DNA of 42,401 nucleotides from Catajapyx aquilonaris. Its lineage: Eukaryota. The notes under the pieces were generated by a model. That model had not been told where the DNA came from and did no database searches. It worked only from the letters and a program-made list of their open reading frames with translations. Positions 3,330 to 27,177 of this stretch are shown here, one piece after another (the first letter of the stretch is position 1; every line of letters begins with the position of its first letter). Location: contig KZ538882.1 of the NCBI GenBank assembly GCA_000934665.2, positions 1 through 42,401 of the forward strand, read 5' to 3'. Both the position numbers and the translations under genes were made by a program.

Positions 3330-6300
3330 TCAAATGGTCTTCTCAGTGATTCCCTTTGCCTTCAGGAATTCCTCAGCTTTCTTCAGAAGAGAATCTGAAT
3401 CTGGAGATGACTTGGACAACCACTTCTTGCTCTTGGCAGCAGCCAGTTCCCAGGTCTCCTTCCTGGACTCCATGGCCACCTCCATGAACTTGATGGCCAG
3501 GGCCGTCACCCAACAAGAAAGGTCAGCTCCACACTGTTTACCAGCTGAAATCATATTACCAACATTTTAGAATATACCGTACTGTATATATTACATCTGT
3601 AACCATATATCTTACCATCTTGCACTTCCTGCCAGTCGGCCCCTATGGCCTTGGCAAGCTCTGGATCAGCTGAAAAACTGCCATCAAATCTGATGAAGGA
3701 TAACACTTGCTCCAGTTTGTCTACTGGCTGTGGTTCAGTGGTAAACTTCACTTCCTCCTCCTGTACCTCCACATCATCCAATTCATCGTCAACGGCCGAT
3801 AGGCAGACTACCTTGAGACAGTCTGCCTTTTCCATTACAGGCGCACTAAAGCCGCGTCCACAACATAAAAACATTCCCTTTGGTGGTGCTGGTGCACATC
3901 TTTTATTCTTCCTCCTCGAGCTCATCACACATGGTGCCACGGCCAAGGACCCCATCCCCATGGCCCCCATCAAATCAAATCCATGTGCAATCTGACTGGC
4001 CACCTGCCTGGTCTGAATCGCCCACAGCTCCTTGTCTGAACCCTGTTTGTGAGGATCGATGGCCACGAATGAAGTGTGAGACGACACCAGTCCATACTTG
4101 ATCCCAAGCTTGACTATCTCTTCCTTTAGTTTTTCCTCAGAAGGTTCAGAGATGACTGAATGAAGCAGGCTCGTCCCTTCCTCCAAGTCACGGATCAGTT
4201 TGCGGGCTGCCAATCTGGAAACAAGATTTGCAATAATAAATTATAGGCATTGTTATTTTATTATTGAGTATGGAATTAATTGACATTTTCAGGATTGTTA
4301 GGTTTAGGCTTGAAGTGTGTTTTATTAAAGTCACAGTGTTACTAATGCAAAAATAACTTACTTGTGCACGAGGTCCCCTTGAACAACATCTTCCTCTTTC
4401 ACACTGACTGTAGTCGTCAGTGGTCCATCTGGTGACTTGGCCGTGATGGTGACACCTGTGGGAACACTCCCATCCTCCCAAATGCAGTACACCAGCAACC
4501 TGGAGCCATCAAACACTGGCGGAATCTGAAATGTACCGGGAATGTAATTAGTACTGACATTGTTACATAAACGCTACAGTTTACTCTGGTAGACATGAGA
4601 AGGCCTGGACATACATGAAATGGAGCTCCTTTTGGTCCCTTCAGTGCATCTTCAGTAGTATTTTTCTGCTCAGCTGGCTTCCGGTAACCCAACAATGTCT
4701 TTTCTGTCACAACTTTAGAATCTGGTTTTGACGAGGCAGAGGAGACTCCTTCCCAGCTCACAGACACCTCTGCAGAACACAAGGTAGTATAAATAAATTA
4801 TTGCTCATCTGACGTTTAACAGAGCTTCTGTCATCTTGAATATTTCCAATGACATGTACCAGTTGTGAATGTGATGAAGTGTGGATAATGTGGCAAAATG
4901 CATTGCAATTCTCACCTGAGAGTGACGGAAAAAGTGCGTTCTTGAGCTGCCTCTGCACCTTTGGCTCTAAGGCTTCCCTGTATGTTGCGTACTCTGCTGT
5001 TCCTCCTCCAGCACGAGCTATCCCTCCAATCAAGTGGTGAGAAGCACTGTCACCAATTCCGAGGGAGAAAACCCGGGTGTTGTGGCAGTTCTGCTTCACC
5101 AGTTTGATCACCTCGTTTGTGTTGCTGACCTGTGATGAAGAGGTGGGATGGTAAGCTTGAGTTCAAGAATTTAAATGCAGTAAAATATGACTCACCTTTC
5201 CATCAGTCAGTACAAAGAGTTGCCGGAGGTATCCCTTGACTGGTTCCTGTCCAAATATTTCCTTCAGTGGGTGGAATATCGCAGTACCAAATAGATCTGC
5301 ATCAAGACTACTGGCGTGACTGATGGCTGTCTTCAGTGACCCGTCCTCATACTTGACACTCTTTGGGAACAGAAGCTCGTGGCTGCTTCCGAAGCCAACA
5401 ATGTTAAAGTAACAGTCCATCGGCAGGGATCGAAGAAAGAGCTAAGGGAGGAGATAATATATCATTAGCATACTTTCCATTTCTCTGCTGGAACAGTCTT
5501 GCCAGCTCCTATTTCTACATACTGGTATTACTTACTGTATGTATAGCAAATGCTCATACACATGGTGAGTCATGTGAAGTTAAGAGAAATGAAACAGTAG
5601 CTGCCAAGAATACAGATCGGTACGGGACATTATAGTCACATTACTGTGGTGAAACAATGTGTAACATACAGTAAGAGCCCTCTTGGCCTGTTGAATGCTT
5701 TCGCCCATCATGGATCCTGATCTATCCAGGAGGAAAACTAGTTCGGCTGGCTGCTCATCCAAGTTGAAACTAGGCACGAGGCTCACGAAGGCAGCTGCGC
5801 TCATCTCTAGTCTCTGTAAAATGGAGTTATAATATGTATTAATACTTATAGTCTTCACTATGTTAATATTAATGTGGATGTTCCAGAAGCAAAAGCAGGA
5901 GGCTAACCTCGATGCAAACCCGTGGCTGATGAGGGTTCTCAGTGGCCACCAAGAGTATGAAATCCCTGTCCATGTCTGTTGTTTGACCTGTGAGAGACGC
6001 TTTTCCAGAATAAAAACCACCCTCACAAAGCAGGGTATTTGCAGTGTCTGTGGTGATTGTATGTGTTGGTGACTCCATGCTAACGATCTTGGACTTCATT
6101 TCACATTCGACTAAAATCTTCATGGGAGCTGGGGATGACCTGGAATGTTTATGACAGTGTTAACTTCTTGTAATGAAAATATACTGTCTGTCTAACTGCA
6201 TGCATGTAGATGTTCCTTACAACGAGTATGGAATGTCCCCAATTTCCTTCGCCTCCTGACTGGTGTCCGACTCTGGAATGTACCTAGGGGCGATGGTGGT

Positions 6301-6774
6301 TGGAAGGAAGAACCTGAGGGCCTTCCCCTCCGCGGATGTCTCTGTGAGATAGACCAGCCTGACCTTGGCCTGTGCCCCTGGAGAGAGGTTCCCCACCTTG
6401 ACCTGGAAGATGTCCGGCTTGTTCTCCGAGGCCAGGAAGGCCGTCTGCCTCTTCTCCATGGCCTCCTCGTACTGCTTCTTGGCCTCTTCTTTCTCCTTCA
6501 CCTCTCCCTTCACAGTCCTTCCGTCCAGTTCTGCCTGGAACTGGACCACGCTGGCCTCCTCGTCCAGTGGGAACATGTACACCGCCTCCACCGGACCCTT
6601 CTCCTTGTTCTTGTAAGTCTGCTCAAGGGTGACCTCCGCCACAAAGTCCACCAGACGAGCCTTAACAGACACTTCCTTCAGCGGAATGGGGACAATCTTC
6701 TCTTCCTCTCCGCACAAGATGATGACCAGGCCACATTCTCTGGGACATTTGCTCAGGGACACATTGGGAGCCAT
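3330..6774 (-). CDS. VWA5A: VWA5A-like protein (VIT-VWA-variable linker-C-terminal helical domain), array copy 1, ~840 aa, 9 coding exons
   Basis: Exons 6221-6774, 5908-6139, 5670-5813, 5196-5441, 4916-5129, 4615-4769, 4362-4525, 3616-4214, 3330-3544; all GT-AG and phase-consistent (2523 nt). VIT motifs PLKEVSV..EAVYMFPLD..DIFQVKVGNL. VWA MIDAS DRSGS..T..TDG. RVFSLGIG..ARAGGG. C-terminal W.TAL..WEL..K..KWL. No signal peptide. Confidence 0.92.
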
Positions 6775-7052
6775 GTTTTCTGTAAAATCCTAGTCACATA
6801 TATTAAAGCACGATAAGTCTGATGAGACAAACAGCATTTCAGTGTCAAGCAAAGACTATAAATATGGGAACTTCATCGTGTTCTCTCCAAATACCATGAA
6901 GCGAAACTCTGGACTCGGGAAGAGCCCCCCATTATCTGAATACCCGGTAAACGCCTGGCATAGCTTGGTTCACATAATTATGTGCGGCATAAATTTTTGT
7001 TTGGCAAAGTTGCCATAAATTACTCCTTGTGCAAAACCAGATGTTCTTATAT

Positions 7053-7480
7053 ATAATTCCATCTTGAATCAAAAATTCATTTCCATATAATTCCAAACCC
7101 AAATTCTTGCTGTCAGTCAACGTTTTATCAGACCCATAAATCACATAAAAATTATAGCCAAAAATAATTTATCAACTGTATGCACCGCCATGTACCCCAC
7201 TTTATAAGATACAATATATTTTGCATTCAGTTTTCATGTCATATTTTCCCTAAGTTATGACGTGTCTTAGACCATATTTGTTAGCTTCATATTTTGTGCA
7301 AAGCTTTGTGTGAAAATTTTCCAATCCATTGTTTCAGCCATTTTTGGCAAGCTAATGAGCATGCAAAAAAAGAGTTGGAAACTGTGTCCTCGATATTTAG
7401 TTTCAGTTGTGTGAAAAAGTTACATCAGAGAGAAACACCCAATGTTATGCAATATACAGTCACGTGAATTACAGGAACAC
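7053..7480. repeat. Non-coding duplicated block, copy B (upstream of VWA5A-like copy 1)
   Basis: Collinear near-identity with 690-1112 at an offset of ~6.4 kb. Confidence 0.9.
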
Positions 7481-8049
7481 CCCTTTCCAGTGACATTATA
7501 CATGAAGTGCACAACGTTCGTAATAGTAAGCCTAAGAAGTGAGGCGAATAAAGCCCCTCTTTTTTTGTCCTATAGCGACCCTTACCAATAATATTTTTTT
7601 TATATACATCATATTTCCATCAGCCACAATGAGACACAAATATTTATGCAGGATGGATACAAATATCGTCCTTCCCTTTGAGAACCAGGTTGCTCTCATG
7701 ATTTCTCTCATATTCATGTGTAGAGTATTGATATTTCCACATTAATAAAGGTAGCGAGCGCTGAAAAGGGGTTGCCGACCACCTTAAGGTTGAGAGCTGC
7801 TGATAATATGAAGGGCCTAAAAAATGGAAAATTCCATGTGTGTACACTTTCATAAAATTATCTGTATCTGTACGTATGCAAAATTATATTTAAACAATTA
7901 TCATAAGACTAACCTCCATATCAGGGCTAATGTATAACCCTCATTAGAAATGTGTATGAATATCGTGTTCAGGAATTAATCCAATTCCCAATTAGTTGTC
8001 CCATTTTATATAGACTACTACAGTATCAAAATACATAATTATGCAAATT

Positions 8050-8140
8050 AATTATATACAAATATTCCGACATCCTAAAAAAATTCAACATTTCCGGTTC
8101 CAAGCGTTTCGGATATCTGTATATCGGAAAGGCTAATTGA
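8050..8140 (-). mobile_element. Possible pogo/Tigger-like DNA transposon terminal fragment
   Basis: The minus strand reads ATATCCGAAACGCTTGGAACCGGAAATGTT...CGGAATATTTGTATAT, which resembles Tigger4/Zombi-type subterminal sequence as I recall it. No second end or TSD found. Confidence 0.35.
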
Positions 8141-9682
8141 GGTGAAATGGGCAATTTGGAATAGAACAACTTGATTAGTAATTGTAAATTCGATATTTCT
8201 GGATTGTGGTACATCCAATATTGTTTGAATACTGTCCAACATCTTTCCAATTCACACAGTACAAAGCAAGGGCAAGACTAGTAAATGCACTATAATAATA
8301 ATAATTCAATACTGAAGTAATCGTGGAAAACCAATAATATTACACCAATATTATTTCAGTGTACCTTGAATTCTGTAACAGGGGCGGCGCAGAGTAGAAA
8401 ACCTCAAAACACTCACACTGGACGCTATGCACTGCACTCTACCTTCACCAGCTGAATGCAACACTAACTTGCACAGTCTGGGAAGGTCCAAGATAGTGCT
8501 GGAGAACTTCCTTCCTTCCCATTTCTTTCCTCCTTTTCCTCCCCCTCTTTCGAAACCGATGAAGGAAATAGTGGAGGAAGCCCTGGTCCTATGATCCCAT
8601 CAACAGGAAACAAGGGCTTATGGAATGGTGATACCGCCCTTTTCCTCCCTTGAGCTTCCTCCTCTCAACTCTCAATCTTGTGCCTAAGCCTACTTCCTGT
8701 CTCGTAATTATTGATTATTATTTGTTTGCTATTTTGTATGCCTATTTGTCGCCCCTTGAAATCTGCCACCCTAGGCAACTGCCTAGGTTGCCTTGTCGTA
8801 AGTCCGGTGCTGATTGATACTGTATTACCTCACTTAAAGCGGCATGCCGGTATAACCCGAGGGTGGCCGGCATGCAGCATTAACAGAGGTAGATTTCCAT
8901 AATTTTCATCCTCATCAAATTTTTTGGAATGCTAAAATAATGTTACGGTGAAAAATGTGTGCATACAGGCTGTGAGAACATGGAAGTTCATCTGTTGCAT
9001 AGGGCATAGTGTGTGACCAATCCCATATTCAGGCTACTCTGAGAGAGGAACCCCCCGTAAACATGACAAAGGATCAATGCAAATTCCTTCAGTCCTTTGT
9101 TTTCCTCAATAGTTTGCTAGTAGTATATCACGTCATTTAGAGGATCACTTTGTGTAGTGGTATCAATTTGTCTGATAAGCCTCGTTACTCAGATAATAAA
9201 ATCCAAACTCAGCATATGAAATATCCTGGTAGGTATGCTTCCCTTCTTGAAGCCTTGAACTTTTAATTGAAAACGTTGCCGTGAATTTGAACTTAACGAA
9301 AGATCTTATGGGAGGTGTCATGCAATAGAAGTGTCATGGGCTGTATCCGCACCATAGAACATGATGTAATGCATTCATTTGAGTAATAATAATTTCCACT
9401 GAGATAGTTGTAATACATGCTGTGAAAGAAAACCTTGCCTTATACTGGCATACCTCGCTTAGACCGGCACGCCGGTATAGCCGCCAGATCATGCATTTCT
9501 TAAAACTGGTCGATCTCGACTACACTGACATGCCACTTTAACAAATTCTGTTTTGCATGAGGTACAGTGATGGTAAGCTATAATTTAATTTTTGGAGGAA
9601 TAAATTCTGTAGTGTCATATAGATAAAAGTTCTCATATCACTCAGAGTGCTGAATTGCAAGTACTGTACAACAAGGGTAAAA

Positions 9683-9960
9683 CCCAGGATAATGTACCAG
9701 AGGAACACGAATTTCAGCAGTGGATTTCAGTCTATCTAGACTGGGATGTGGTGATAAGGAGGTGCTAGAAATAATCAGAAAGTGCACGTCTAACTAATCA
9801 GAATACATTTTACATTGTAAACATGATGTATTCACCCAGTGAACAGTTTAAAATGATCAATCATGTAAAATCTCAGTCACAAAGAGGAGCAGAATAAGAA
9901 CATTTCTAATACTGTAAACAATATTTCCCAAGGCTCCAGCATGCAGTCTTCTTGATACTA
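9683..9960. repeat. 3' flank of VWA5A-like copy 2, paralogous to ~3010-3290
   Basis: Same ordered motifs as the copy 1 3' flank; offset ~6.7 kb. Confidence 0.8.
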
Positions 9961-10087
9961 CTTCTCGCAAGCAGCCAGATCATCCAGGCAAGACTTTAAT
10001 AAGGGCACTTTTGCATTTGGGTGCATATTAAGCTTTATATCACGCCGATAGGATGATTTGCTACTTGTAAAAATGCCTGTAAGTTAT

Positions 10088-13000
10088 TCAATCAGTCTTT
10101 TCCTTTGCCTTCAGGAATTCCTCAGCTTTTTTCAGAAGAGATTCTGAATATAGAAAGGACCTGGACAACCACTCCTTGCTCTTCTTGGCAGCCAGTTCCC
10201 AGATCATCTTGCTGGACTGCATGGTCATCTCCATGAACTTGATGGCCAGAGCTGTCATCCAACAGGACAGGTCAGCTCCACTTTGATTACCAGCTGAAAT
10301 AATGTTAGCAACATTTTAGAATATATAATTACGTCTGGAACTGTGCATCTTACCATCCTGCACTTCCTGCCAGTCGACCCCTATGGCCTTGGCAAGCTCT
10401 GGATCAGCTGTAAAATTCCCATCACATTTGATGAAGGACATGACCAGCGCAAGTTTTTTCCTAGACTCTGGTGCAACAGTAGGTGGCTCTGGACCATATC
10501 CACCTCCACACATGGGATATATCTTCCAACAAGAGGTGCCTCCCGTTGGAGATGTGACATAGTACATCAGCCTTATCATGCGCCCTTGTCCGCCCCAGCC
10601 ATTTGCGATCTGACTGGCCACCTGTCTGGTCTGAATGGCCCACAGCTGACCATTGTCTGACAAACACTGTCTGCGAGGATCGACAGCTATGAATGACGTC
10701 TGCGATGACACCAGACCATACTTGAGGCCCAGCTTAACTATCTCTTCCTTCAGTCTTTCCTCACAGCGTCCCAGAATTATGGAATGAAGCAGACTCGTAC
10801 CTTCCTCCAAGTCGCGGATCAATTTGCGGGCTGCCAACCTGGAATAAATGGTTGCAATTATAGGAAGGCCTGTTTACGATGGGGTTAGGTTCCAGCCAAG
10901 CTGGGTCGTCAAATGAAATACCATATTAAACCCTACATGTATACAAGTAGTGCTCGTTTTATGTCAGGGATGTGTTCCAGCATTAGAGCGGCATAAGTAA
11001 ATTAGCAATTATAGCGTACGTGAATGAGATTGGTTACAAAATTAAATGGCATAAAACTAGGCGGTATAAAATGGGCAATACTTATCCATACACATTTGGA
11101 GATCATTAAATGATAATTATACTAACTTATGCACAAGATCCCCTTGAACAAAATCTTCCTCTTTCACTCTGACCGATGTGGTCAGTGGTCCGCATTGTGA
11201 ATTGGCCGTGATGGTGACACCCGTGGGGACACTCCCATCCTCCCAAATGCAATATACGAGCAAGCGGGCTCCAAAATACATGGAGGGAATCTGAAAAATT
11301 ATTTTAGTGCCAATTTTACACAATAACAATTTCATAATCCATGAAAGAATATTAGTCCAGTTCATACGTGGAATGGAGCTCCTTTTGGTCCATTAAGTGC
11401 ATCTTCAGTCATATTTTCCTGCTCAGTTGGCTTCCGGTAACCCAGCAGAGTCTTTTCTCTCACAACTTTATATTTTGGTTTTGAGGCAGAGGAAAGTCCT
11501 TCCCAGCTCACAGAGACCTCTGAATAACCAATTCATAGCATTGGGCATGAGGCATTGAAGGTGTTTTAAAGGGGTTTAAAGTCTAATTTTTGGCACTTAG
11601 AGCCTTACGTATGTCTACTCGTCAATAATTATTCTCACCTGAGAGGGATGGATAAAGTGCGTTTTTGAGCTGCCTCTGCACCTTTGGCTCCAGTGTCTCG
11701 TTGAATGTTGCGTACTCTGCTGTTCCTCCTCCAGCACGAGCTATCCCTCCAACCAGGTGGTGAGAGACACTGTTACCAATTCCAAGGGAGAACACACGGG
11801 TGTTGTGGAAGTTCTGCTTCACCAACTTGATCACCTCGTCTGTGTTGCTCACCTTCAGAGATGAGGAACAGTGGCCAGATTGAGTTCAATGAAAATGTGG
11901 GAAATTATGACTCACCGCTCCATCAGTCAGTACAAATAGTTGTCGCAGGTACCCCTTGACTGGTTCCTGCCTGAATATTTCCTCGAGCGGGCGGAATATC
12001 TCGGTACCACCCAGATCTGCCTCAATCCTGCTCACGTGACTGATGGCTGTATACAGTGTCCCATCCTCATACTTGACACTCCTTTCGAATAAACACTCAT
12101 GATGGCTTCCGAAGCCAATGATGTTAAAGTAACAGTCTGTCGGCAGCGATTGAAGAAAGAGCTAGGAGAGGAAACATGTCGTTAGTACTTAGTAACATTA
12201 TGCGAATGTAGGCTGAGCACTCTTGCCAGCTCCTATTGTGTAATTGCAATATTATATATGTGTAATGGGAATATCTACAGTAGCGTTATAAGCGGGATGG
12301 CCTGCCTACACCACTCCTGCTGCCTCTACCGCTGGTACTGTATATCAGCCGTGTAATGTACAGGGATAAGAAAGGAAATAGCAGATGCCAATACTGCAGA
12401 TTGTAACAAGGCATTATTGGATTAAAACAATGTGCAACTTACAGTAAGAGCCTCCTTGGCCAACCTAATGCAGCCACTCATAGACCCTGATCGATCCAGC
12501 AGAAAAACTAGTTCGGCTGGCTGCTCATCCAGGATGAATCTAGGAACGAGGCTTACGAAGGCTGCTGTGCTCTTCTCTGATTTCTGTAAAACAAAGTTAT
12601 ATTCATCGATACTTATAGTTTTCATTATATTAATGCAGATGTTCGATTTGTAATAATAGGAAGCTTACCTCGACGCAAACCCTTGGCTGATGAGGGTTCT
12701 CAGTGGTCACCAAGAGAATGAAATCCCTGTCCATGTCCATACTTTGACCTGTGAGAGACGCACTGGCAGAATAAAAACCTCCTTCATGAAGCAGTGTGTT
12801 TCCTATGTCTGTGGTGACCGAATGTGTTGGTGACTCGATGCTGATGATTTTTGACTTCATTTCACATTCAACTGAAATCTTCATGGGAGCTGGGGATGAC
12901 CTGCAATGTTTTAAACGGTGCAATAAAATACTGATTGTTGCCTGCATGTAGATGTTCCTTACAATGAGTAGAGCATGTTGAAGATTTCCTTGCTCTCCTG

Positions 13001-13519
13001 ACTGGTGTCCGACTTGGGGATGTACCTACGGGCGATGGTGGTTGGAAGGAAGAACCTGAGGGCCTTCCCCTCAACGGATGTCTCTGTGAGATAGACCAGC
13101 CTGATCATGACCTGATCCCCTGGAGAGAGGTTCCCCACCTTGACCTGGAAGATGTCCGGCTTTTTCTGCATGGTCAGGAAAGAGGCCTGCTTCTTCTTCA
13201 ACGCCTCCTCATACTGCTTCTTGGCCTCCTCCTTCTCCTTAATTTCTCCTTTGACCGTCCTTCCGTCGCCCAAGTCCGCCTGGAACTGGACCACGCTGGC
13301 CTCCTCGTCCAGCGGGAACATGTACACCGCCTCCACCGGACCCTTCTCCTCGTTCCTGTAGGTCTGCTCAAGGGTGACCTCCGCCACGAAGTCCACCAGA
13401 CGAGCCTTAACAGACACTTCCTTCAGCGGAATGGGAAAGATCTTGTCTTCTTCTCCGCGCAAGAACATGACCAGGCCACATTCCAGGGGATAATCGCTGA
13501 GGACCGTCTTGGGGGCCAT
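10088..13519 (-). CDS. VWA5A: VWA5A-like protein, array copy 2, ~798 aa, 9 coding exons
   Basis: Exons 12963-13519, 12669-12900, 12443-12583, 11916-12161, 11639-11852, 11368-11519, 11127-11290, 10354-10838, 10088-10293; GT-AG, frame intact (2397 nt). MIDAS DRSGS..GGTE..TDG retained. Confidence 0.92.
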
Positions 13520-13539
13520 TGTCTCTGTAAATTCTGAGG

Positions 13540-13570
13540 CAGTGCTTCTCAACTGGGGTTCTGCAAGAAA
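13540..13570 (+). mobile_element. Possible hAT-type MITE terminus just upstream of the copy 2 first coding exon
   Basis: CAGTGCTTCTCAACTGGGGTTC resembles the CAGTG.TTCTCAA termini of hAT/Charlie non-autonomous elements. The matching end was not clearly found. Confidence 0.3.
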
Positions 13571-14061
13571 TAGTGATCAATATAGGCTATTGAGCAAACA
13601 AAATTCCTTTCTCTTACCAACTTTGGTGACAATGATTCTTTCGATTTTGCCTTGCACGAGAAAGTGTAAGGCGTCCCAATAGTTTTTGAGAAGTGAGAAA
13701 ATTTAGGCCAGTTCTTACTTTAGTTACTTACAACGTTGCTGTCACGAAAAATCACATGAAACCCATCACTAAATTTGGTGACATGCCTGCCCTGATTCCA
13801 GCATGGTCTGGTGGGCTGAAAAACAGCAACGCCGCTAATATGAATAGCTGCTAAAATATTTAGCAGTTCTCTAACCGATTCGAAGAAGATGCTATTCTGC
13901 TAATCTGCTATCATAGGGATTGTCTTGCTGACTGATCGACTAGAGTGTTCTGCAACTAATAATTATACTGCATATATACTAATATTGCACGATATTTACT
14001 AATAATAAAGTTTAATACTGGATTCGACATTGTATATACAGGAAGTATAATGTAATTAAAC

Positions 14062-17000
14062 TTAATCCGGCTTCTCCTCGGTGACTCCTTTTGCCTTCAG
14101 GAATTCCTCAGCTTTCTGCAGAAGAGAAACTGAATCTGGTGTTGACTTGGACAACCACTTCTTGCTCTTGGCAGCAGCCAGTTCCCAGATTGCCTTGCTG
14201 GACTGCATGGTCATCTCCATGAACTTGATGGCCAGGGCTGTCACCCAACAGGACAGGTCAGCTCCAGTCCGACCACCAGCTGGAATGTTGACCACATTTT
14301 TTTTTCACTGGGAATAAACAAACTTGACCTTGCTACAGTTCTGTGAATATCAACATGACAAGTATAGGCTACGTCCGGAAATTTTACGTGCATATATTAT
14401 GGTGGTGTTGTTTCTGGAACATCCCACTCACCATCATTCACCTCTTGCCAGTCGATCCCTATGGCTTTGGCAAACCCTGGATCGGCCAGAAATCCGCCAT
14501 CAAATTTGATGAAAGCCATGATCTCATGAAGAGTCTCCGACGTGTTCTCTTCGAGCTCGGCAAACGATTCCAACTGAGGCATGAACGAACTCCTACTCGC
14601 CTGTTTCTCCAGAATCCCTCCTGTCGTTGGAGCAATCGTTTCGTCAGGTTGGAAACTTACTGGTGGCATCAGCACTCTCTTATTGTTGGCACAAGTCGCC
14701 CTGCATTGTTGCGTTTGATCGACTGGCCCGGAAGTCAGCGTGAGTCTGTTAGGTCGAGCCATTGTCATGCGTCTAGTCATGTCAGATTCTAGCGACACTG
14801 GGATCGGCATGGCTCTAGTTACAGGAGCAGACAGAGCTACTGTTGCTAGAATGGCGTCTGCTGGACTGGCGCTGTACATCATCATCCTGGGCTGTATTCC
14901 GTGCCACCCGTGCGGGATCTGACTGGCCACATGCCTCGTCTGAATGGCATACAGATCCTTGTCCATACCATGTCTGCGAGGATCTACGGCCACGAATGAC
15001 GTGTGAGACGACACCAGTCCATACTTGATCCCAAGCTTCACAATCTCCTCCTTCAGTCTTTCCTCTGGAGGTTCAGAGATGACTGAATGAAGCAGGCTCG
15101 TCCCTTCCTCCAAGTCGCGGATCAATTTGCGGGCTGCCAATCTGTCCAATATATCAGATCAACTTCCCATTTTCTTTCAAATTAAAAAAAAAATTGTACT
15201 AATCCGAAAAAGTGCAGCGAATTGTTGAAAAAAAATATGGACATATACTTATGCAAGAGATCTCCTGTTAAGAGATCTTCCTGCGTGACCTTCACAGTCG
15301 TGGTCAGTGGTCCGTCTGGTGACTTGGCCGTGATGGTGACACCCGTTGGGACACTCCCATCCTCCCAAATGCAGTACACCAGCAACCTGGAGCCATCAAA
15401 CACTGGCGGAATCTGCAAACGCAAAAACAAAATGTCATTCCATACACAAAATATTGTACTGTCGGACTTGTCACACACGTGATGTGGAGCACCCTGTGGT
15501 CCTCTCAAGGCCTCTTCCGTTGTCTGTGTCTGGCCAGTTGGCTTACGGTATCCCAGCAGAGTCTTCTCGGTTGTAATTGTCGAGTGTGGTTTTAAGGCGG
15601 TGGACACTCCTTCCCAGGCCACAGACACCTCTGTATAGAGAATAGACGGAACAGTTTTCGCCAATGATCTCAGCAGACTGAATTGTCATGTGCCAATGAC
15701 CTGAAAGTGCAGGAAACAGAGCGTTCTTGAGCTGCCCTTGCACCTTTGCCTCCAAAGCCTCTTTGTATGTTGCGTACTCTGCTGTTCCTCCTCCAGCACG
15801 AGCTATCCCTCCAACCAGGTGGTGAGAGGCACTGTCACCAATTCCAAGGGTGAACACCCGGGTGTTGTGGGAGTTCTGCTTCACCAACCTTATAATCTCG
15901 TATGTGTTGCTCACCTTCAATAATGAGGAGCAACTGTCAGATGTGTTAAGACCAAAATGTTGAGACCCACCTGCCCATCAGTCAGAAGGAACATTTGTCG
16001 CAGGTAGCCCTCGATTGGTTCCTCTCTGAAAATGTGGCTTAGAGGCGTGTATATGTCAGTTCCGCCCATGTCAGCCTCGAGGTCTGAAAGCCACATTATT
16101 CATTATAGCAAACAAGTCAAATAATAGTCTGGGTGACTTATTTACTTGCGGCGTGACTTATGGCAGTCTTCAACGAGTCGTCGTCGTACTTGGCACTCTT
16201 CTGGAACAAAAACTCGTGTTCGTTTCCAAATCCAACGATGTTGAAGTAAGAATCTATTGGCAAGGATTGAAGAAATAGCTAAGGAAGATAAAAAGAAAGT
16301 TGACGTCATCCTGACGTCACTTTCCTCTCTGGAAATATGGCAAATAAAATATTTAAAAATGCAATTGTAACAATGCAGGCGTACAGTGAGGGCCTTTTTG
16401 GCTTGATCCAGGCTTTGGCCGGTCATAGATCCGGATCTGTCCAGAAGAAAGATCAGTTCCACTGGCTGCTCATCCAGATTGAAACTGGGGACAAGACTAA
16501 CAAGGGACGCCACACTCTCTCCCCATTTCTGATAATCAATTGCTCATTATTAGTACAGTACTACAATGAGTTGATTCACAGAGAATATGAACTTGCCTCG
16601 ACGCAAACCCGTGGCTGGTGAGGGTTCTCAGTGGTCACCATGAGTATGAAATCCCTGTCCATGTCCGTAGCTTGACCTGTCAAAGTCGCTTTGCCACAGT
16701 AGAAACTACCTCCGTGAAGCAGTGTGTTTCCTATGTCTGTGGTGACCGAATGTGTTGGTGACTCGATGCTAATGATTTTGGACTTCATTTCACATTCAAC
16801 TGAAATCTTAATTGGGGCCGAGGATGACCTGAAATGTTTTCAACCCTGCCAATCAACCGTAATGAGAACACAGTGCGTAATTGCAATATCCTTACAATGA
16901 GTACGCAATCCTTGAAATTCTTCTCACAGCAGAATTAGTCCTGGACAACTCCGGAGTGTACCTAGGGGCGATGGTGGTTGGAAGGAAGAACCTGAGGGCC

Positions 17001-17455
17001 TTCCCCTCCACGGATGTCTCTGTGAGATAGACCAGCCTGACCTTGGCCTGTGCCCCTGGAGAGAGGTTCCCCACCTTGACCTGGAAGATGTCCGGCTTGT
17101 TCTCCGAGGCCAGGAAGGCCGTCTGCCTCTTTTCCATGGCCTCCTCGTACTGCTTCTTGGCCTCTTCTTTCTCCTTCACCTCTCCCTTCACGGTCCTTCC
17201 GTCCAGGTCCGCCTGGAACTGGACCACGCTGGCCTCCTCGTCCAGTGGGAACATGTACACCGCCTCCACCGGACCCTTCTCCTCGTTCTTGTAAGTCTGC
17301 TCAAGGGTGACCTCCGCCACAAAGTCCACCAGACGAGCCTTGACAGACACTTCTTTCAGCGGAATGGGGACAATTTTCTCTTCTTCTCCGCCCAGGATGA
17401 TGATGACCATACCACATTCTCGGGGACATTTTTTGAGGGGCACCGTGGGAGCCAT
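14062..17455 (-). CDS. VWA5A: VWA5A-like protein, array copy 3, ~879 aa, 10 coding exons
   Basis: Exons 16896-17455, 16597-16828, 16385-16528, 16146-16278, 15971-16083, 15701-15914, 15479-15630, 15249-15412, 14432-15141, 14062-14279 (2640 nt). One GC-AG intron (donor GCAAGT at 16596). MIDAS DRSGS..GGTD..TDG. Confidence 0.9.
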
Positions 17456-18005: not shown

Positions 18006-21000
18006 TCAGAGAGTCGACAGATGTATTCCTTTCGACTTCAAGAAATCGCCAGCCTGTGTCAACAAGGAATCAGCTTCTGTCACTTGAGTGGACAACCACT
18101 TCTTGCTCTTCTCAGCGGCCAGTTCCCACATATCCTTACGTGAACCCAATTTCATTTCCAAGAAAGCCACACCCAGGGCTGTCAACCAGCATTCCATTTT
18201 GACTCCAACTTTATGTCCAGCTTTAAAAAAGACAAGAAAATGTGCACATTAAAATCCCAACAATTGATCAGAAAATCCAGAAAACATGTTTTACTGAATA
18301 TTTCCATTTTTTTAAACACACTATACCGGCCTGTATTTCTTCCCAGCAGATTTCAACTGCCTTTGCAAATCCTGGATCCGCCTTGTAGCCACCATCAAAC
18401 TCCATGAACGAAAGCAGTTCATGTGTCCTTCGTTCTAAAGGAGACATGCCCAAATTAGAACCACTGGAATCCAGTGTTCCAGTTGTTGTATCCACGGTTG
18501 TATCCGACAAGTCCCATATCTCTGTTAAAAATGGAGGCATCCTTTTGGCGGCAGGCATCCAACCATCGGAAGAACTGCTGCACTGTTGCGACCCAGTCTC
18601 TAGTCTTTCAGACTCTAGTCTTTCAAAACCCGGCCTTTTTGTGCCAATGGGTAATCTAAGACATTCTTTTATTCGGCAAAATTTGACTGGACCGCCATAA
18701 TTTGGAATACGACGCGTCTGTAAAATTGACAAACTGAAATCATTTTCTGCCGTCTGATTTTCAGGATCCACTGCTACGAAAGACGTGTGAGTCGATACCA
18801 TGTCTGTAAAGTGAGGCACTCATTTATACAAAATGTACAAGTAAAATGATCAGGACTACCGGATAATGACTTTTTACAATAATTGTATAATAATTCCTTA
18901 CTGTATTTGCAGCCAAGTTGAACAATCTCGTTGGCTACTACTTCTCTCAAGGGTGCATCATCCTTATTTTTATGCAGATAACTGCTTCCTTCTTCCAAAT
19001 CACGGATTAGCTTCCTGGCAGCGAGTCTGGAAGTGACAATTTAATCAATGTTTTTAATCAGATCACCACCTCACTAATCTGCACTAATCGGTTCGCTTAC
19101 TTATGCACAATGTCGCCTTGAAACAAGTCGTCTTCAGTGATGGTGACAGACGAAGAGAGAGGGCCATCAGGTGTTTTAGCAGTGATGGTGACACCTGTGG
19201 GGACAACACCTTTTTCCCAGATGCAATATACCAGCAGTCGTGATCCGTTGAACACTGGCGGAACCTAAAGTACAATAGTGCAATTTATTTATTTAATAAC
19301 TGACGTGTATTTAGCCATACATTGAATGGCGCTGGTTTTGGAGCAGATTCCTCTGAAGTCTTGACAGGTTCAGATTTGCTGGAAGATGTTCCTTCCCACT
19401 TCACCGCAATGTCTGCAAATACGCCATAATTAAAGCCATATTTTTATATATATAAAAACTTGTCACTTGGTCACCTGTCAGTGCTGGACACAATGCGTTT
19501 TTGAGCTGCCTTTGAACTTTAGGCTCCAACGACTCGTTGCGTGTGGCGAATACTGCAGTTCCTCCTCCAGCTCTAGCAATACCTGAAACTAAGTGATGCG
19601 AGACGTGATCCCCGATTCCCAAGGCGAAGACCCGTGACTTGTGACAATTCTGATGCACCAAACTGATCACCTGATCCGTGTTGCTCACCTTCGATATATG
19701 ACAACACCCGTCATTAACACAACTGAACCTGCCAGTAATTAATATAACAATTTACCCGTCCATCAGTCAGGACAAAAATCTGCCTGACGTATCCTGTGAT
19801 CTGCTCTTGAGAAAATATCGCTTCCAGTGGTTCGTAGATTTCTGTACCACCCAAATTGGCCCGAAGATCTGTGGTGTACAAAAGTGTTAACAACTTGTCC
19901 AGTATGTTTGTCAACACTTACTTACCGAATTGGACGTAATTTAAAGCAGTTTCCAAGGACGTGGAGTCATACTTCACGCTCCGAGGAAATAGTAACGAGA
20001 AACTGGATCCGAATCCAACAATGTTGAAGTAACAATCGGCCGGTAACGAACGAAGGAACAACTGTTGAAAAAGATAACATGTATTGCGTTACAATAATAT
20101 TACTGAAAGGCGTGGAAAGCAAGAAAAGCCAAATATTTGGCAAAAACTTTCACATACGTAAATATGAAAGTTTTTGCCAAATGGGGCTTTTCTTGCTTTT
20201 CTTGAATTTTCTGCTCTCCATAGATCTATGGAGAGCAGAAAATTCGCATTAGTTTTCATACTGTTAGAGCTCTTCGGGCCAACTCGGTGCTATCTCTTCC
20301 CATAGATCCAGATCTATCCGTAACAAAGACCAGTTCAGTCAGCTGTTCATACATTTTAAAGCTCGGCACAAGACTGACGAATGCAGCCACGCTCGACTCG
20401 AATTTCTGTGTTGTTAGAGAAACAATCAGTTGCATTTTCCTCTACTTTTTTTAAAAATATGCTATAAATTGTGCCTAACCTCAACACCAGCACGTGGATG
20501 GTGAGGATCATCTGTTGAGACCAAGAGGACAAAATCTCTGTCCATGTCCGTGGTCACTCCTTCCAACTTGGCTTCTCCTTTAAACATCTTCCCTCCAGCT
20601 TTGTCGTTCTGAGTGACTGCGATTATATCATGGCTAGGAGATGACATCTTGCAAATTCGTGACTTCATCTCGCATTGGACTTGGATTTTCATCGGAGCTG
20701 GCGAGAAGCTGAAATTATCTAATAAGTTAAAAAGTCGATGCAACCAGTACAGTATACGTACTTGCTGTAAGGAATTGATTGGATCTCTTGCGATTCAGGT
20801 GAAGTGTCTGTACTTGGCACGTAACGAGGTGCGACAGTCGTTGGTATGTAGAATCGCACGTTATTGTCTCCTTCAGCCTCCATTTCAGACAAATACGCCA
20901 GTTTGATCGTAGCTTCAGAACCAGGCGCCAAATTCCCAATCCTCACCTGCAGATTATTTAGAAACAAAACATCCGACAGAGAGAATAAGCCTATTAGGGA

Positions 21001-21365
21001 AAAAAATATACCTGAAATATGTCCGCCTTGCTTTGTCTGAGCAAAGCTGCAGCTCGTCTTTGTTGGATGGCATTATTATATTGCTTCTCAGCCTCATGCT
21101 TTTCCTTGACCACTCCATTGACCGTCCTTCCGTCCAGACGAGCCTCGAACTGGACAACACTGGCCCCTTCGTCCAAAGGGAACATGTAGATGGCCTCGAT
21201 TGGACCACCTTCGTCATTCCGGTACACCTGCTCTAGTGACACTTGAGCCACGAAATCCACCAGACGGGCCTTGACATCAACACTCTTCAGAGGAATCCGA
21301 GGTCCGTTTCCTTCAGGACATGATATGTACAATCCGCAAAAATTTGACACCAGATCTCCAGCCAT
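18006..21365 (-). CDS. VWA5A: VWA5A-like protein, array copy 4, ~815 aa, 12 coding exons
   Basis: Exons 21012-21365, 20762-20946, 20480-20708, 20262-20405, 19926-20061, 19756-19868, 19475-19688, 19321-19412, 19101-19264, 18902-19026, 18327-18803, 18006-18220 (2448 nt). Start GCCATGG. MIDAS DRSGS..GGTE..TDG. Confidence 0.9.
20116..20199. repeat. Long imperfect inverted repeat (hairpin) in an intron of copy 4
   Basis: AAAGCAAGAAAAGCC (20116-20130) pairs with GGCTTTTCTTGCTTT (20185-20199). ATTTGGCAAAAACTTTCA (20135-20152) pairs with TGAAAGTTTTTGCCAAAT (20165-20182), leaving a 12-nt loop. Confidence 0.92.
20204..20245. repeat. Perfect 42-bp palindrome in the same intron
   Basis: GAATTTTCTGCTCTCCATAGA|TCTATGGAGAGCAGAAAATTC is its own reverse complement. 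Confidence 0.97.
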
Positions 21366-22199: not shown

Positions 22200-22847
22200 A
22201 TGGCTGCTGATGAAGTGAGTATAATTAGCACTTTTAATTAGCATTAATGTTGGCTCATAAAGATAAGGATTGCTCGTCAATTGTAGTGTAAAATATTGTA
22301 ATATTTACAGGATCTTCATCTGATCCGTGCTCTGGTCACATCCCGTCCTGGTGTCCCTTTTAAACGTTTCCGCACCCCAGAGGATCAGGCTCAGTACAGG
22401 GTGATCCTGAAGGGCATGATAGACTCACTGGAGGAGGAAGAGAGGTTGGCGAAGGCAAGGATGGGTCAGAAGGGTGACACCGCAACACTGGTGGTGGGAG
22501 AGCAAGGTGACCACCCATCATCATCAGCAGGTCCTGCTCCTGATGGAAGCGGTGACATCCAGTCACAGCCTGGAGGATGCGGACAGAGCAGGGTTCCGGA
22601 GAAGAGGGGGTCAAGTGAGCTTCCGGACCCACCCAGAGAGGCCAAGGAGGCCAAGAGAGATGACTTGCCAGAGGATGACAGCTCCGACGCTACTGATGTC
22701 ATCGAGATGTCTGACGATGACATCAGTGACCTCACTGATGATGATGATAGCGACGTCATTATTATTGATGATGATGATGATAGTGACATCACCGACGACA
22801 ACGATGAGGATGTGGAGCTGCATGAGGAGCCTCGTCTGACTGGCTGA
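22200..22847 (+). CDS. Orphan acidic, largely disordered protein (~183 aa) with tandem SUMO-interaction-like motifs
   Basis: Exon 1 22200-22214 (GTCATGG context; MAADE|GTGAGT); intron ends TTTACAG; exon 2 22311-22847 is in frame. GC-rich coding-like composition against AT-rich flanks. AATAAA at 23048. The C-terminus contains VIEMSDDD, ISDLTDDDD and VIIIDDDDD. Confidence 0.75.
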
Positions 22848-23476
22848 GTTGCATCAATCCGGTTGATGTTACAAGAGTTCCATTTTTGTTATTTCGTATT
22901 TTGTGTTTCATGCCATGTTGGATGTATTCTGGCCTATTCTGGGTTCAGATTATTATTATTTTTTGTAAAGGCAAGAGGACAACAAAAGTGCAGTTTTTTT
23001 TTCTCATATAATATTACTCTTGGATCAACAACTTGGACAGCATGCAAAATAAATACGTACACAGTATATCAGCCTTAGACAACTTTATTAATATTTTAAA
23101 GTACAAGCTAGAATTATCAAACAATAACTTATTGACCAGCCCAGATAAGTTAGTGAAGCATGAAGCATCCTGTGTTATTGTAGAAAATATTAATCATATA
23201 TGTTCTTAGATAAATAATTTTAAATGCCACTCGTTACAACGACATGGCAGTCTTGTTAAATGTCCTCTTTAAAATAGGCTATCACATTATTATATTCCAC
23301 TGCATTATGCTTGGTTTGTAAGTCTGCAACAGTCAATATGTTTTCCGACAAGCTGCGACAAAAGCCCCATAGCTATTATGCGCATGCAATAAAGTTTTAA
23401 GGTCCCACGTGTAGTCATGTAAATTACATAAAATAATAATAATATCTGGTATTATTGATAATTTTTTTCACAGCCG

Positions 23477-26400
23477 TTACTTTTTGGATCGGAGAAATTC
23501 TTCGGCTTGTTTCAGAAGAGAGTCGTAGTCGCTGGGAATCTCTTTCTTGAGCCACTTCTTGCTCTTGAGGGCCACCAGCTCCCAGCTTTCTTTCTCGGAT
23601 GGCAATTCCAGCTCCATGTACGCCACGACCAAAGCGGTTAGCCAATACTTCAAGTCGACTCCACTTGCTCCTGTGGGGAAAAGTAATTGCGGGTTTTAAT
23701 ATTACAAGAAATGCCTCCTGGACAGTCGCGTATTTTTACCATCTTTCATATCTTCCCATTCGATTCCAATCACTTTGCTTATCCCTCCTGTTCCAGGATC
23801 AACACTCCCGTCGAAGTTTATCAAAGCAAGGAGTGACTCGAGTGGACCTGGCTCAATAAATGCATCTGTGTTTTGGACTCCAAAACCACTTGGCATCCCA
23901 AAAGTAAAACCTGTGCCAACTGCTGGCATTGGTTGTTGTATCGGACCACCAAATAATTGACCTTCATTATTGGCAGATCCATCAGAACCAAATGACGGTT
24001 GAGATGAGCGCAGGTGTTGGCACAATACAGAAAATCCGCTCTGTTGTTGGCTATTCGCACCAAAGGAAAATGCTGGAGTTGCTTCTGGTTTCGGTTGTGC
24101 TCCAAAAAGGCCGGAATTATTTGTTGCTGCTGTTTTTGCCGTGGTTGTGTCCTCGACAAGTGCAGATAGATTATGAGAATGAAGCTGCGGCTGGGGGGTG
24201 GCACCAAAGGAAAATCCAACAGGAGCTGATTGCATAGTTGATTGCGCTCCAAAAAGACTGGACTTAATAGCGACAGGTGCTGTCGTTACTGGAGCATATG
24301 CCGTACAACCAGAGGAATCCAAAAATAGAGAATGTTGTGTTGAAGAGCCGAATGGAGTGGCTGCTGGCCCACATTTCAGCTGCTGTTGCTGCTGCTGCTG
24401 GGGCTGGGGCTGTGCTCCAAATAATGAGCCAAAATTAGACTGATTTGCTGGAGCACCAAAACTAAATCCAGTGCCCGGCCAAAGCGGACCCTGTGAAACA
24501 GCCCCAAATGGTTGAGAGTAGCCATGCCCTAGTCCAAACTGATTTGGCACTTGACGAGTGTGAATCATCCATGATTTGCTCTGCTCAGCATGTACTCTCG
24601 AATCAACAGCCACAAATGATGTGTGTCTGGATGCCAAGCCTGTAATTCAACAAATATTAATTACTCATCCATAAAATACGCAGGCATAATTACAATCATG
24701 CGTATTTACCATATTGGCAGCCAAATTTGACGATTTCAGCTTCGACATCTTCCGGAAGAGGTATGCCAGTGACGCTATGCAAATAACTTGTCCCTTCTTC
24801 CAAATCACGAATTATCTTTCGGGCTGCGAGCCTGTAAAATCAAGATCGGTTCGTACGAAGTTGTATGATATTACACTGTCGACTTACTTATGCACCAGAT
24901 CTCCCTTTAATACGTCGTCATCTCCAATAGTGATGGATGCAGAGAGTGGACCATCAGGAGTTTGGGCAGTGATGGTGACTCCGCTGGGGACACTTCCGTC
25001 TTCCCAAATGCAGTAGACCAGAAGACGTGACCCATCGAATACAGGTGGGACCTGTACGGCCAGGTTATATATTAACGAAACATGTAATTAACATCGAAAC
25101 ATTATTAACTTGCATGAAATGGAGCACTCTTTGGGCCGATGCACCCTTTTTGTGCAGCATCTGGACTTTTCTTGGGCTTCCGATATCCCAACAGTGTCTT
25201 CTCCGTGACAAGCTCTACTTCAGGTTTGCTCACAGAAACATGCGGTGTTCCTTCCCATGTGACGGTCACGTCTGAAAAATCATCGCAGATCAGTTGTGCA
25301 CTACTAACAATGTGTTAAATACGAAGCTTACCTGTCAGGGTTGGAGACAGAGCATTTTTTAACTGCCTCTGCACTTTCGGTGCCAACGTTTCATTGTTAG
25401 TGACAAATACGGCGGTTCCTCCTCCAGCACGTGCTACACCTTCCACCAAATGATGCGAGGCACAGTCCCCAATGCCCAGTGCAAAGACGCGTGACTTGTG
25501 GCAATTACGATGAACCAAACTGATCACCTCTTCGGTGTTGCTGACCTACGAAATAAACTTCATGCGTCAATATATATTGTGCCATTTATTCCAAACTGAT
25601 CAGCTCACCTGTCCATCCGTGAGAAGGAACACTTGACGTAGATAGCCTGCGATAGGCTCCTTAGAAAAAATCGCTGCGAGAGGGTTATATATTTCTGTTC
25701 CGCCAAGATTGGCATCAACCCCTGAAAGTAATAAACTCTTTTAGACCATCACACATCTTGCCAATACTTGGCAGTAACTTACGATATGCAGTGTGATTGA
25801 GGGCTTTGTGCAAAGTACTTGAATCGTACTTGACGCTATTCGGAAACAGCATCTCAAAAATACTTCCAAAACCAACGACATTAAAGTAACAGTCGGTTGG
25901 TAACGAATGCAGGAAAAGCTGAAAGGAAAGCAATGTAATCAGACCGACATTACAGTAATGTTCATACAATTATTACCATTAGCGCTTGTTTAGCCTGACG
26001 AATACTCTGTCCACCCATAGATCCGGATTGGTCGAGAACAAATATCAGCTCCGCTGGTTGCTCATCCAGATTGAAGCTTGGAACGAGGCTCACAAAAGCA
26101 GCGACACTTGCTTCAGATTTCTAAACAACAATGTAGTAATTAGACTCCATAATAATTGTACAAGAATCGATAACAGTACCTCCACACAAGCTCGTGGTTT
26201 GTGAGGATCATCCATCGTCACCAACAGGACAAAGTCACGATCCATGTCCGTTGAGTGGCCAGCCAATGAAGCTTCTCCTCTGAATAACTTCGCATCGTTG
26301 TCTTTCTCGTTAATTATGTTAACGATAACCTTATGGCTCGGAGACACCATTTTATTAATCGCCGACTTCATCTCGCATTTCACCTCAATTTTCATCGGTA

Positions 26401-27177
26401 CTGGCATGTAACTGAAATGATAGTTTGTAGTTAATCATCCTCGTTAGCGTTCTGCGTAGTCTTACTGCGTATAAGGCACATTATGAATATCTTGCGCTTC
26501 TTCGGTGGTGTCCGTGCGGGGTATGTAACGAGGCGCTATTGTGGTTGGCAGGAAGAATCGTACCGCTTCTTCTTCACATGACATCTCGGCAAGGTACACT
26601 ATCCTTACTTTGGCCATAGCACCGGGAACTAAATTGCCAACCTTCACCTACGTTACCGAAAAGAAAAGCCGTCAGCATTTTGAATCTATTACAAGTTAGT
26701 AAAGTCTCACTTTGAAGATGTCAGGCTTGTTCTCCTCGGCCAAGAAAGCCGTTTGCCTGTTAGCGACAGCCTGCCGGTATTGCTGCTCAGCGTCTTCCTT
26801 CTTCTTGACGACACCGTGAATGGTACGTCCATCCAACTCAGCTTCGAACTGAATAACGCTTGCTGCTTCGTCCAGCGGAAACATGTACACGGCTTCAACC
26901 GGATTCGCCTCATAGTTCTTGTAGGTCTGCTCCAGCGTCACCTCCGCAATGAAGTCCACCAAATGCGCTCGTACCGACACATCTTTCAGCGGAATCTGAG
27001 CGCAGCAGGATCCGTCCGCTTTGGTAATACACAAACCGCTGAATTCCTCCTCCAGTCGTTTAGGTGTCCATGGTGTCCAACCTATAATTATCTGCCAGTT
27101 AACATACCGGTACACTGTATTATTATTTAAAAAATTTAAATCACTGCGGCATTACCTGTCGGTCCTTTCCCAAACAT
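23477..27177 (-). CDS. VWA5A: VWA5A-like protein, array copy 5, ~983 aa, 13 coding exons, with an FG-repeat linker
   Basis: Exons 27156-27177, 26711-27081, 26466-26647, 26180-26411, 25977-26120, 25783-25918, 25609-25721, 25332-25545, 25114-25271, 24888-25051, 24710-24831, 23740-24639, 23477-23670 (2952 nt). One GC-AG intron (donor at 25113). MIDAS DQSGS..GGTE..TDG. Confidence 0.9.
23879..24538 (-). repeat. Coding FG-repeat region (14 FG motifs) with a short polyQ
   Basis: QFG, PFG, FSFG, NFG, SLFG, PFG, SLFG, FSFG, GLFG, FSFG, SFG, QLFG, FTFG, GFG within ~220 aa rich in Q/S/T/A/P/G/N. CAG-type Q7 run at 24380-24400. Confidence 0.93.

Follow-up and report, generated by a model that had tools for sequence, protein, structure and literature searches.

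Five tandem VWA5A-like genes of Catajapyx aquilonaris: a conserved VIT-vWFA scaffold carrying a variable loop

We analyzed a stretch of 42,401 nt of the Catajapyx aquilonaris genome (contig KZ538882.1 of assembly GCA_000934665.2, positions 1 to 42,401; hereafter the window), in which five similar genes encoding proteins with VIT and vWFA domains stand in a row between positions 3330 and 27177. The window has the appearance of eukaryotic DNA: open reading frames found with genetic code table 11 were short and all on the minus strand, and frames read from stop to stop corresponded to exon-sized pieces of five similar proteins. Gene models were derived with our own protein-to-DNA spliced aligner seeded with P0002, the Darwinula stevensoni protein that was the closest database relative (58% identity to the window in exon 1); ambiguous junctions were inspected by eye. 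The models gave five intact VIT-vWFA paralogues placed head-to-tail on the minus strand, all with introns and with all frames open. An earlier reading of the same letters (the original prediction) had claimed five intact paralogues; the gene models confirm it, with the outer limits 3330 and 27177 matching exactly.

Gene A (3330-6774, minus strand, as are the other four) has 9 exons and encodes a VWA5A-like VIT-vWFA protein of 840 aa; gene B (10088-13519) has 9 exons and encodes 798 aa; gene C (14062-17455) has 10 exons and encodes 879 aa; gene D (18006-21365) has 12 coding exons and encodes 815 aa; gene E (23477-27177) has 13 exons, the first coding one of just 22 nt, and encodes 983 aa. Intron length ranges over 53-288 nt. 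Of the 48 introns, 46 belong to the GT-AG type, and the remaining two, located after 16597 in C and after 25114 in E, are GC-AG. When the window was searched by tblastn with the five proteins, 0 of 185 high-scoring segment pairs fell outside the five gene spans, i.e. no further copies or fragments were found. An apparent relic of a C-terminal part at 2682-2819 was dropped as unsupported by this search.

Comparison of intron positions showed that eight are common to all five genes, with identical phases, two are present only in D and E, one only in C, D and E, and one only in E. This pattern is an intron-loss series, and it agrees with the gene tree, ((D,E),(A,(B,C))).

The Pfam scan covered five exons of A, the linker exon of each of B-E, and the full-length relative P0002. 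In exon 1 of A we saw VIT (E 9.1e-39) and VIT_2 (E 8.5e-19), the other four genes aligning through the VIT region; exon 4 of A matched VWA_3 (E 3.9e-12). The domain order is the same as in P0002, with no extra domain besides the loop described below. In the scanned exons and in P0002 only VIT and vWFA were detected: there were no effector domains (death-fold, TIR, NACHT, CARD, protease or thioester module) and no A2M or MG family. The last exon gave no match. The proteins begin 25-40 residues ahead of the VIT domain; no BRCT or PARP catalytic domain precedes it, the Pfam result for exon 1 being VIT only, and the thioester motif CGEQ is absent from all five proteins. The MIDAS residues (metal ion-dependent adhesion site) are present in every copy, as had been predicted: DxSxS in five of five (DQSGS in E), GGT in four of five (FGT in A, where Thr is retained, making Thr five of five), and LTDG in five of five. 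The maximum hydropathy over 19 residues is ≤1.43 in all five proteins, signal peptides and membrane spans being judged from hydropathy and from homology to an intracellular clade alone, with no dedicated predictor; in A-C a short hydrophobic stretch close to the N-terminus belongs to VIT, being the conserved first strand of this domain.

Some local peculiarities were seen within the scaffold. At the 3′ end of exon 1 of gene C (~16896-16960) a stretch of ~20 codons, ELSRTNSAVRRISRIAYSL, stands in place of the conserved ESDTSQEAKEIGDIPYSL of A; the replacement is in frame and one codon longer. A second poorly conserved loop is located in the hybrid domain (exons ~4615-4769, 19321-19412 and their equivalents), corresponding to P0002 residues 474-518, where the predicted local distance difference test score (pLDDT) is <50; in this loop gene D has a deletion of ~19 residues.

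The closest named database matches were ‘VWA5A-like’ proteins of Darwinula, Daphnia and Collembola; fungal and many bacterial VIT-domain proteins matched as well, and the best sequence match in the PDB was the VIT-vWA region of PARP4, followed by ITIH. A quick tree (42 rows, LG+G4) placed the five copies in one clade with support of 100 in the Shimodaira-Hasegawa-like approximate likelihood ratio test (SH-aLRT), with separate expansions in Daphnia, Darwinula and Collembola. By sequence, the five genes are clearly new members of the known VWA5A/BCSC-1/Dictyostelium Vwa1 family, forming a lineage-specific tandem array. The same tree showed VWA5A-like proteins of the fly Bradysia nested in the collembolan clade beside Orchesella (SH-aLRT 99); such a placement suggests that a public assembly contains contaminant sequences or transferred genes.

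Dictyostelium Vwa1 and human VWA5A/BCSC-1 are described as consisting of VIT, hybrid, vWFA, hybrid, three helices, VITpt2, a long disordered loop and a conserved C-terminal domain (CTD) of 101 aa (PMC10539598). In the AlphaFold predictions of that study the CTD docks on vWFA in both Vwa1 and VWA5A, and autoinhibition was proposed by its authors; they also describe an amplification specific to the Dictyostelium lineage (Vwa1-5) and an interaction of Vwa1 with the F-box protein FbxwD. The window proteins resemble VWA5A/BCSC-1/Vwa1-5 (clade B2 of PMC10539598) in layout, in the variable loop, in the CTD of ~100 aa, in having no obvious signal peptide and in lineage-specific amplification; they differ in forming a five-copy head-to-tail array with an intron-loss series, with gene conversion among three of the copies and with one FG-repeat loop. 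ITIH1 and ITIH4 have the VIT-hybrid-vWFA-helical core fold in common with the window proteins; unlike the window family, ITIH proteins are secreted and, as described in PMC10539598, without this CTD.

As a stand-in for the window proteins we used an AlphaFold model of P0002 built from a 30-sequence alignment (mean pLDDT 79, predicted TM-score 0.79). Its loop, residues 646-674, has pLDDT <50 and its CTD is helical with pLDDT ~90; the core of the model matched ITIH1 (6fpy) with E 2.4e-29, and the family profile matched ITIH4 with E 3e-33.

The five window proteins can be aligned end to end save for one segment, the linker (or loop), which we delimited by the landmarks of the original prediction, from after TR[QHR][VI] to the helix before [FC]DG; in four of the five genes it sits in the largest exon. 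Linker A (3716-4000, inside exon 3616-4214) is 95 aa long, has six Cys (4.3x the scaffold) and an acidic last third. Linker B (10454-10618, inside exon 10354-10838) is 55 aa long and rich in Gly and aromatic residues (10 Gly, 4 Tyr, 2 Trp). Linker C (14532-14927, inside exon 14432-15141), of 132 aa, is enriched in Met, Pro and Arg, and linker D (18427-18705, inside exon 18327-18803), of 93 aa, is rich in Ser (11) and Thr (9). Linker E (23843-24547) is the longest, 235 aa, with 14 Phe-Gly (FG) dipeptides and a run of seven Gln. It matched Pfam Nucleoporin_FG with 22.7 bits (E 1.8e-4), under the gathering cut-off of 32.2; Pfam gave nothing else on the loop exons.

The segments proposed in the original prediction were thus recovered to within ~10 nt and their compositions broadly hold. 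The description of the inserts as low-complexity suits linker E, which is clearly repeat-like; the other four are only mildly biased. Entropy is 3.76-4.01 bits in the linkers versus 4.07-4.15 in the scaffolds, and 12-mers of <2.2 bits make up at most 6%. The only tandem DNA repeats in the linkers are a 15-nt unit in the poly-Gln part of E (24379-24412) and a 15-nt unit in D (18594-18625). The description of the inserts as unrelated applies to the linker cores, which are not alignable. Among the 10 gene pairs none showed similarity between cores at the DNA level (z ≤2.0 in 10 of 10), nor was cross-gene similarity seen at the protein level or in shifted frames; blastn of the linkers against the rest of the window found no similarity either. 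One match, of an E peptide to the antisense strand of A (E 1e-4), was regarded as compositional, having been obtained with composition correction off and a five-sequence database. In its first ~12-15 residues the linker carries a motif of the family, GW[GHQ]G, which 68 of the 99 family linkers possess; it can be seen, at least in decayed form, in A, B, C and E. These residues belong to the scaffold.

The probability of encountering no stop in the linker frame by chance is 4e-3, 6e-2, 4e-3, 4e-3 and 2e-5 for A to E, respectively, with 1-11 stops in each of the other two frames. The open frame exceeds chance, and the frame is maintained. In DNA run X1 we saw 11 differing sites, located in exons and introns of B and C with none in a linker; several of them may reflect cross-assigned paralogue contigs, and they were not used.

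How common is such a loop in the family? Taking two regions of the five window proteins, the 75 residues that precede the loop and the CTD, we built hidden Markov models (HMMs) and searched 162 sequences (157 from the database and five from the window). Both flanks could be placed in 109 of the 162 sequences, and the CTD model recovers the domain in 109 of 162; linker statistics were computed for the 99 of these 109 that passed filters on flank completeness and length. Among the database relatives with both flanks placed, which include animals, fungi and bacteria, loop length varies between 31 and 667 aa. In Daphnia pulex, in Darwinula and in Orchesella, paralogues have loops that differ from one another, and members of Acidobacterial type have variable loops of 53-112 aa. 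Daphnia near-orthologues with scaffolds 93-94% identical have loops only 55-60% identical; at ~80% scaffold identity Daphnia loops are 40-43% identical, which is near noise. In Daphnia the loop changes several times as fast as the scaffold. The window A, B and C scaffolds are 75-80% identical, and their unalignable loops are therefore the norm for the family at this distance.

The loops do share some features of composition. Met is enriched in all three groups compared, 1.8x in the window loops, 2.2x among eukaryotic relatives (22 sequences) and 2.5x among 72 other relatives, most of them bacterial, and Cys is enriched 2.6x in the loops of eukaryotic relatives; FG-rich loops occur in three of the 157 database relatives (P0028, P0035 and P0029). 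The Met/Cys bias across kingdoms speaks for some compositional constraint and counts against calling the loops wholly ‘unrelated’. The loop cores of the 99 family linkers and the window yielded no conserved motif. Two patterns occurred slightly above shuffled controls: [SCG]AP[VPA].[MC] in seven of 99 family linkers and P[PV]M.M/PPMM in four of 99, neither of them in the five window linkers.

Among A, B and C the ratio of non-synonymous to synonymous divergence (dN/dS) of the scaffold is 0.26-0.31, with dS 0.38-0.53. All seven of the 10 pairs that involve D or E are saturated or nearly so (proportion of synonymous differences, pS, 0.72-0.81); in such pairs an unconstrained segment would be unalignable anyway. 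Along the gene pS varies from 0.03 to 0.67 between A and C and from 0.11 to 0.74 between B and C; for A vs C it is 0.03-0.07 over residues 51-150 and 0.63-0.67 over residues 251-401. This mosaic of synonymous divergence indicates gene conversion among the tandem copies A, B and C, with the consequence that the copies are older than average dS makes them look. Significant alignment of orthologous introns was obtained in five of eight cases for A-B, one of eight for A-C and two of eight for B-C.

The CTD occupies 3330-3715 in A, 10088-10453 in B, 14062-14531 in C, 18006-18426 in D and 23477-23842 in E (all on the minus strand, by the five-protein alignment); in A a phase-1 intron (3545-3615) splits the domain. 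The model of the P0002 CTD is all-helical with pLDDT 97.4, and the window CTDs align with it. A family profile of 30 sequences matched PARP4 at 605-1223, from VIT to the end of the core, with E 2.7e-117 and, in the same order, at 1543-1643, the start of its C-terminal domain, with an independent E of 0.093; here PARP4 LLSLQTEDGFWKL was aligned to the family LVSLQxFDGSF. A profile of the CTD only, run against the whole PDB, gave two matches at E ≤10: an axonemal VWFA protein of T. brucei (E 0.017) and PARP4 1573-1642 (E 0.035). In a VIA wide structural search with the CTD model the T. brucei protein was best (Z 11.2, root-mean-square deviation 2.4 over 93 residues), and PARP4's MINT domain in the vault (9bw6_B 1570-1705) ranked 4 of 48,161 (Z 5.9, root-mean-square deviation 3.2 over 86 residues), a score that the search tool itself places in the chance range for helical bundles. 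With Foldseek the T. brucei chain alone stood out in the PDB (E 0.047), PARP4 not being among the best 50 rows.

Each of these lines is weak; being consistent, they make it probable that the CTD is homologous to PARP4 MINT. The layout shared with PARP4, as the original prediction had it, is borne out by the core profile, the CTD profile and the MINT fold: the order of VIT-vWA and helical region is the same and the loop is at the same position. The relation of the CTD to MINT implies that the window loop corresponds in position to exon 30 of PARP4, which is described as disordered, >300 aa long, the gene's largest exon and under recurrent positive selection in primates and bats (PMC4038475). 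Unlike PARP4, the window proteins start with VIT, no BRCT or PARP catalytic domain preceding it, and their loops are 55-235 aa versus >300 aa. The vault-PARP4 structure paper has 0 occurrences of VWA5A; the Dictyostelium paper (PMC10539598) does not mention MINT and mentions PARP4 twice, in the introduction and in the list of abbreviations.

The T. brucei axonemal ‘VWFA domain-containing protein’ (9e5c, chains 4s/4t) is the closest solved structure that includes the CTD (E 1.5e-23 with the full P0002 model); unlike the window proteins, it is a structural component of the protist flagellar doublet microtubule. The wide search with the CTD model also returned fragments of the complement C4 thioester domain (Z 6.6 and 6.3), the CTD fold resembling part of this domain, with alpha-2-macroglobulin and TEP1r lower (Z 4.3-4.6); the start of the CTD, LxxLQxxDGS[FW], resembles the helical-hairpin repeats of alpha/alpha toroids, with no thioester motif. 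More generally, the CTD behaves as a mobile module without a Pfam model: its profile matches 4873 cluster representatives at E ≤1e-3, it occurs in up to 18 tandem copies (P0158, 2589 aa), and it is combined with C2 (P0160, P0165) or with a protein kinase domain (P0162).

Transcript support came from run X5, whose library type is not on record; it was treated as RNA-like since its contigs skip introns (CT..AC on the plus strand, i.e. GT..AG on the minus strand). For gene D, a contig of 2816 nt spanning 17737 to beyond 21438 joins all 11 coding introns at the modelled coordinates, contains the linker exon 18327-18803 whole and reveals an additional intron in the 5′ untranslated region (joint 21369/21438, skipping 68). 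For gene E, a contig of 1219 nt joins 23091-23669 to 23739-24372, i.e. the last exon to the linker exon, with the linker unspliced over 23843-24372; it ends at a repeat. For gene B, a contig of 330 nt covers the last exon and the 3′ untranslated region (10003-10293) and stops at the modelled exon boundary. Gene C had no contig among those listed over its body (13970-16637), which is no evidence either way on expression; the comparison was made for a 20-kb stretch not including gene A and has no bearing on the expression of A. We conclude that D is transcribed and spliced as modelled, that transcripts also come from part of E and from B at its 3′ end, and that the loop of D, and in part that of E, is present in mRNA. 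The original prediction had named silence of most copies as a finding that would speak against it; D, E in part and B at its 3′ end are not silent.

Two neighbors of the array were recognized by Pfam. One, at 27707-28511 on the minus strand, is an aspartate/ornithine carbamoyltransferase-like gene, in pieces; the other is represented by an exon of a D-Tyr-tRNA(Tyr) deacylase on the plus strand (29956-30306, E 2.9e-19); 105 of the 109 flanking open reading frames had no Pfam match. By their annotation the neighbors look like housekeeping genes, and nothing flags the locus as immune. Summed word depth in DNA run X1 reached 1607 and 463 over 8634-9967 and 292 over 20640-21306, versus ~30 elsewhere, with many loose ends near 8751-8855 and at 20998; these peaks probably mark dispersed repeats, one set lying between genes A and B and the other at the first intron of D. 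Between D and E (22302-22888) both strands contain long Ser-rich open frames of up to 181 aa with no Pfam match; a repeat at 22750-22820 seems to interrupt the reads, and a loose end of an X5 contig lies at 22967. An assembly gap of 12 N is located at 36301-36312.

What mechanism could produce this picture? We think it probable, if well short of certain, that the proteins are MIDAS-bearing interaction scaffolds whose CTD is tethered by a loosely constrained loop, and this is the mechanism we consider most likely. The order of parts would be VIT, hybrid, vWFA with intact MIDAS, three-helix region, loop and helical CTD. The loop would tether the CTD to the core, and the CTD may dock on vWFA and autoinhibit it, as the predictions in PMC10539598 suggest for Vwa1 and VWA5A. 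Constraint on the loop would go no further than an open frame and a loosely Met/Pro/Ser(/Cys)-rich composition, so that indels and substitutions would renew it at close to the neutral rate; the scaffold would be kept by purifying selection, with gene conversion in addition among A, B and C. The look of a conserved scaffold with an exchangeable linker would then arise because the loop is near-neutral while selection and gene conversion hold the scaffold.

Several observations weigh against the loosely constrained tether. The five copies are retained intact with distinct loops, which suggests that the loops matter. The make-up of the loops is atypical for a disordered region, Cys and Met being enriched, and simple disorder proxies do not separate loops from scaffold; disorder and CTD docking are predictions for the stand-in P0002 alone, which is 58% identical in exon 1, and not for the window proteins. 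In A-B, the single informative pair, the five alignable introns and the 3′ flank are 75-85% identical with z >10, and the linker core has z 1.7: here the loop has diverged beyond most neutral sequence, and the difference in its length (95 vs 55 aa) points to turnover by indels. Weak constraint together with escape from gene conversion could explain this A-B excess; selection for change could do so equally well. The original prediction implies linkers that diverge faster than neutral sequence; the A-B linker core is less alignable than five of eight introns, but within the array, with saturated dS and gene conversion, no excess over the neutral rate is demonstrable.

If the loops do matter, the copies could be subfunctionalized adaptors, with motifs or the physical character of each loop directing the same scaffold to a different partner or compartment: the FG repeats of E to FG condensates or the nuclear pore, the Cys of A to lipidation or metal, the Ser/Thr of D to phosphorylation. 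An immune role would be unneeded. The intactness of five copies and the transcription of D and, in part, of E and of B (at its 3′ end) speak for this reading, as do the 14 FG dipeptides in the loop of E versus three in its scaffold, the presence of FG-rich loops in a few database relatives and the Met/Cys bias common across lineages; the work of Dictyostelium Vwa1 with an F-box protein also fits an adaptor or hub (PMC10539598). However, the loop cores have no conserved motif, the better of the two weak patterns being absent from the window, and the Nucleoporin_FG match is below the Pfam cut-off; all considered, we find the adaptor reading rather unlikely.

The original prediction took the loop for a diversifying bait in a lineage-specific defence locus. 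By analogy with known tripwires, a pathogen protease or binder would act on the loop, freeing the CTD from vWFA and activating the protein, and the five copies would make up a decoy array. The loop is positionally equivalent to the positively selected exon 30 of PARP4 (PMC4038475), a tethered and possibly autoinhibitory CTD (PMC10539598) would suit a tripwire design, the expansion is lineage-specific with a distinct loop in each copy, and the A-B loop is less alignable than most introns; in addition, a shrimp transcriptome study lists a VWA5A-like contig with a log2 fold change of 1.85 after virus infection (PMC8804360). Against it, only VIT and vWFA were detected, with no effector, protease or thioester module and no CGEQ; the loop is variable family-wide, equally so in bacterial members; the excess over the neutral rate is not demonstrable; and the neighbors are the carbamoyltransferase-like and deacylase genes. 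With alpha-2-macroglobulin and NLRP1/CARD8 the likeness is in design only, a fast-changing exposed segment between conserved domains: unlike those systems, the window proteins have no MG domains, CGEQ, FIIND, CARD or other effector in the scanned exons and P0002. The defence claim is thus unsupported, and we rate the bait reading, a fair analogy that the positional match with PARP4 makes more interesting, as decidedly unlikely. One could speculate further, and we would give this slim credence, that the loop is an ancient, purpose-built exposed module of the whole family, with PARP4 exon 30 as one instance of it; the different loops of the five tandem genes would be intracellular decoys, and a pathogen factor that cut or captured one of them would set the docked CTD free and activate the MIDAS-bearing core.

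Least probable in our view, and very improbable in itself, is association with the vault, in which the MINT-like CTD would dock inside the particle and the loop would be a leash letting the VIT-vWFA core reach the lumen. The CTD profile match to PARP4, one of only two in the PDB, and the rank of MINT in the structural search would agree with it. On the other hand, helical bundles can reach such a MINT score by chance, and it is the axonemal trypanosome protein that gives the best structural match. In PARP4 two residues, S1614 and K1618, reportedly touch MVP (PMC12280208); the family profile takes the stretch containing them for an insertion specific to PARP4, which makes vault binding by the window proteins doubtful.

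If the reading of a loosely constrained tether is true, the value of the locus is mainly one of annotation: an array of five VWA5A-like genes, cleanly resolved and in part supported by transcripts, that shows an intron-loss series and gene conversion. It would also mean that a conserved scaffold with an unalignable loop can arise when a weakly constrained loop accompanies a scaffold subject to gene conversion, and that this pattern alone is no sign of an arms race. The probable relation of the CTD to MINT offers a way of asking whether the ‘host-virus interface’ of PARP4 is a special case or an inherited trait of a loosely constrained tether.

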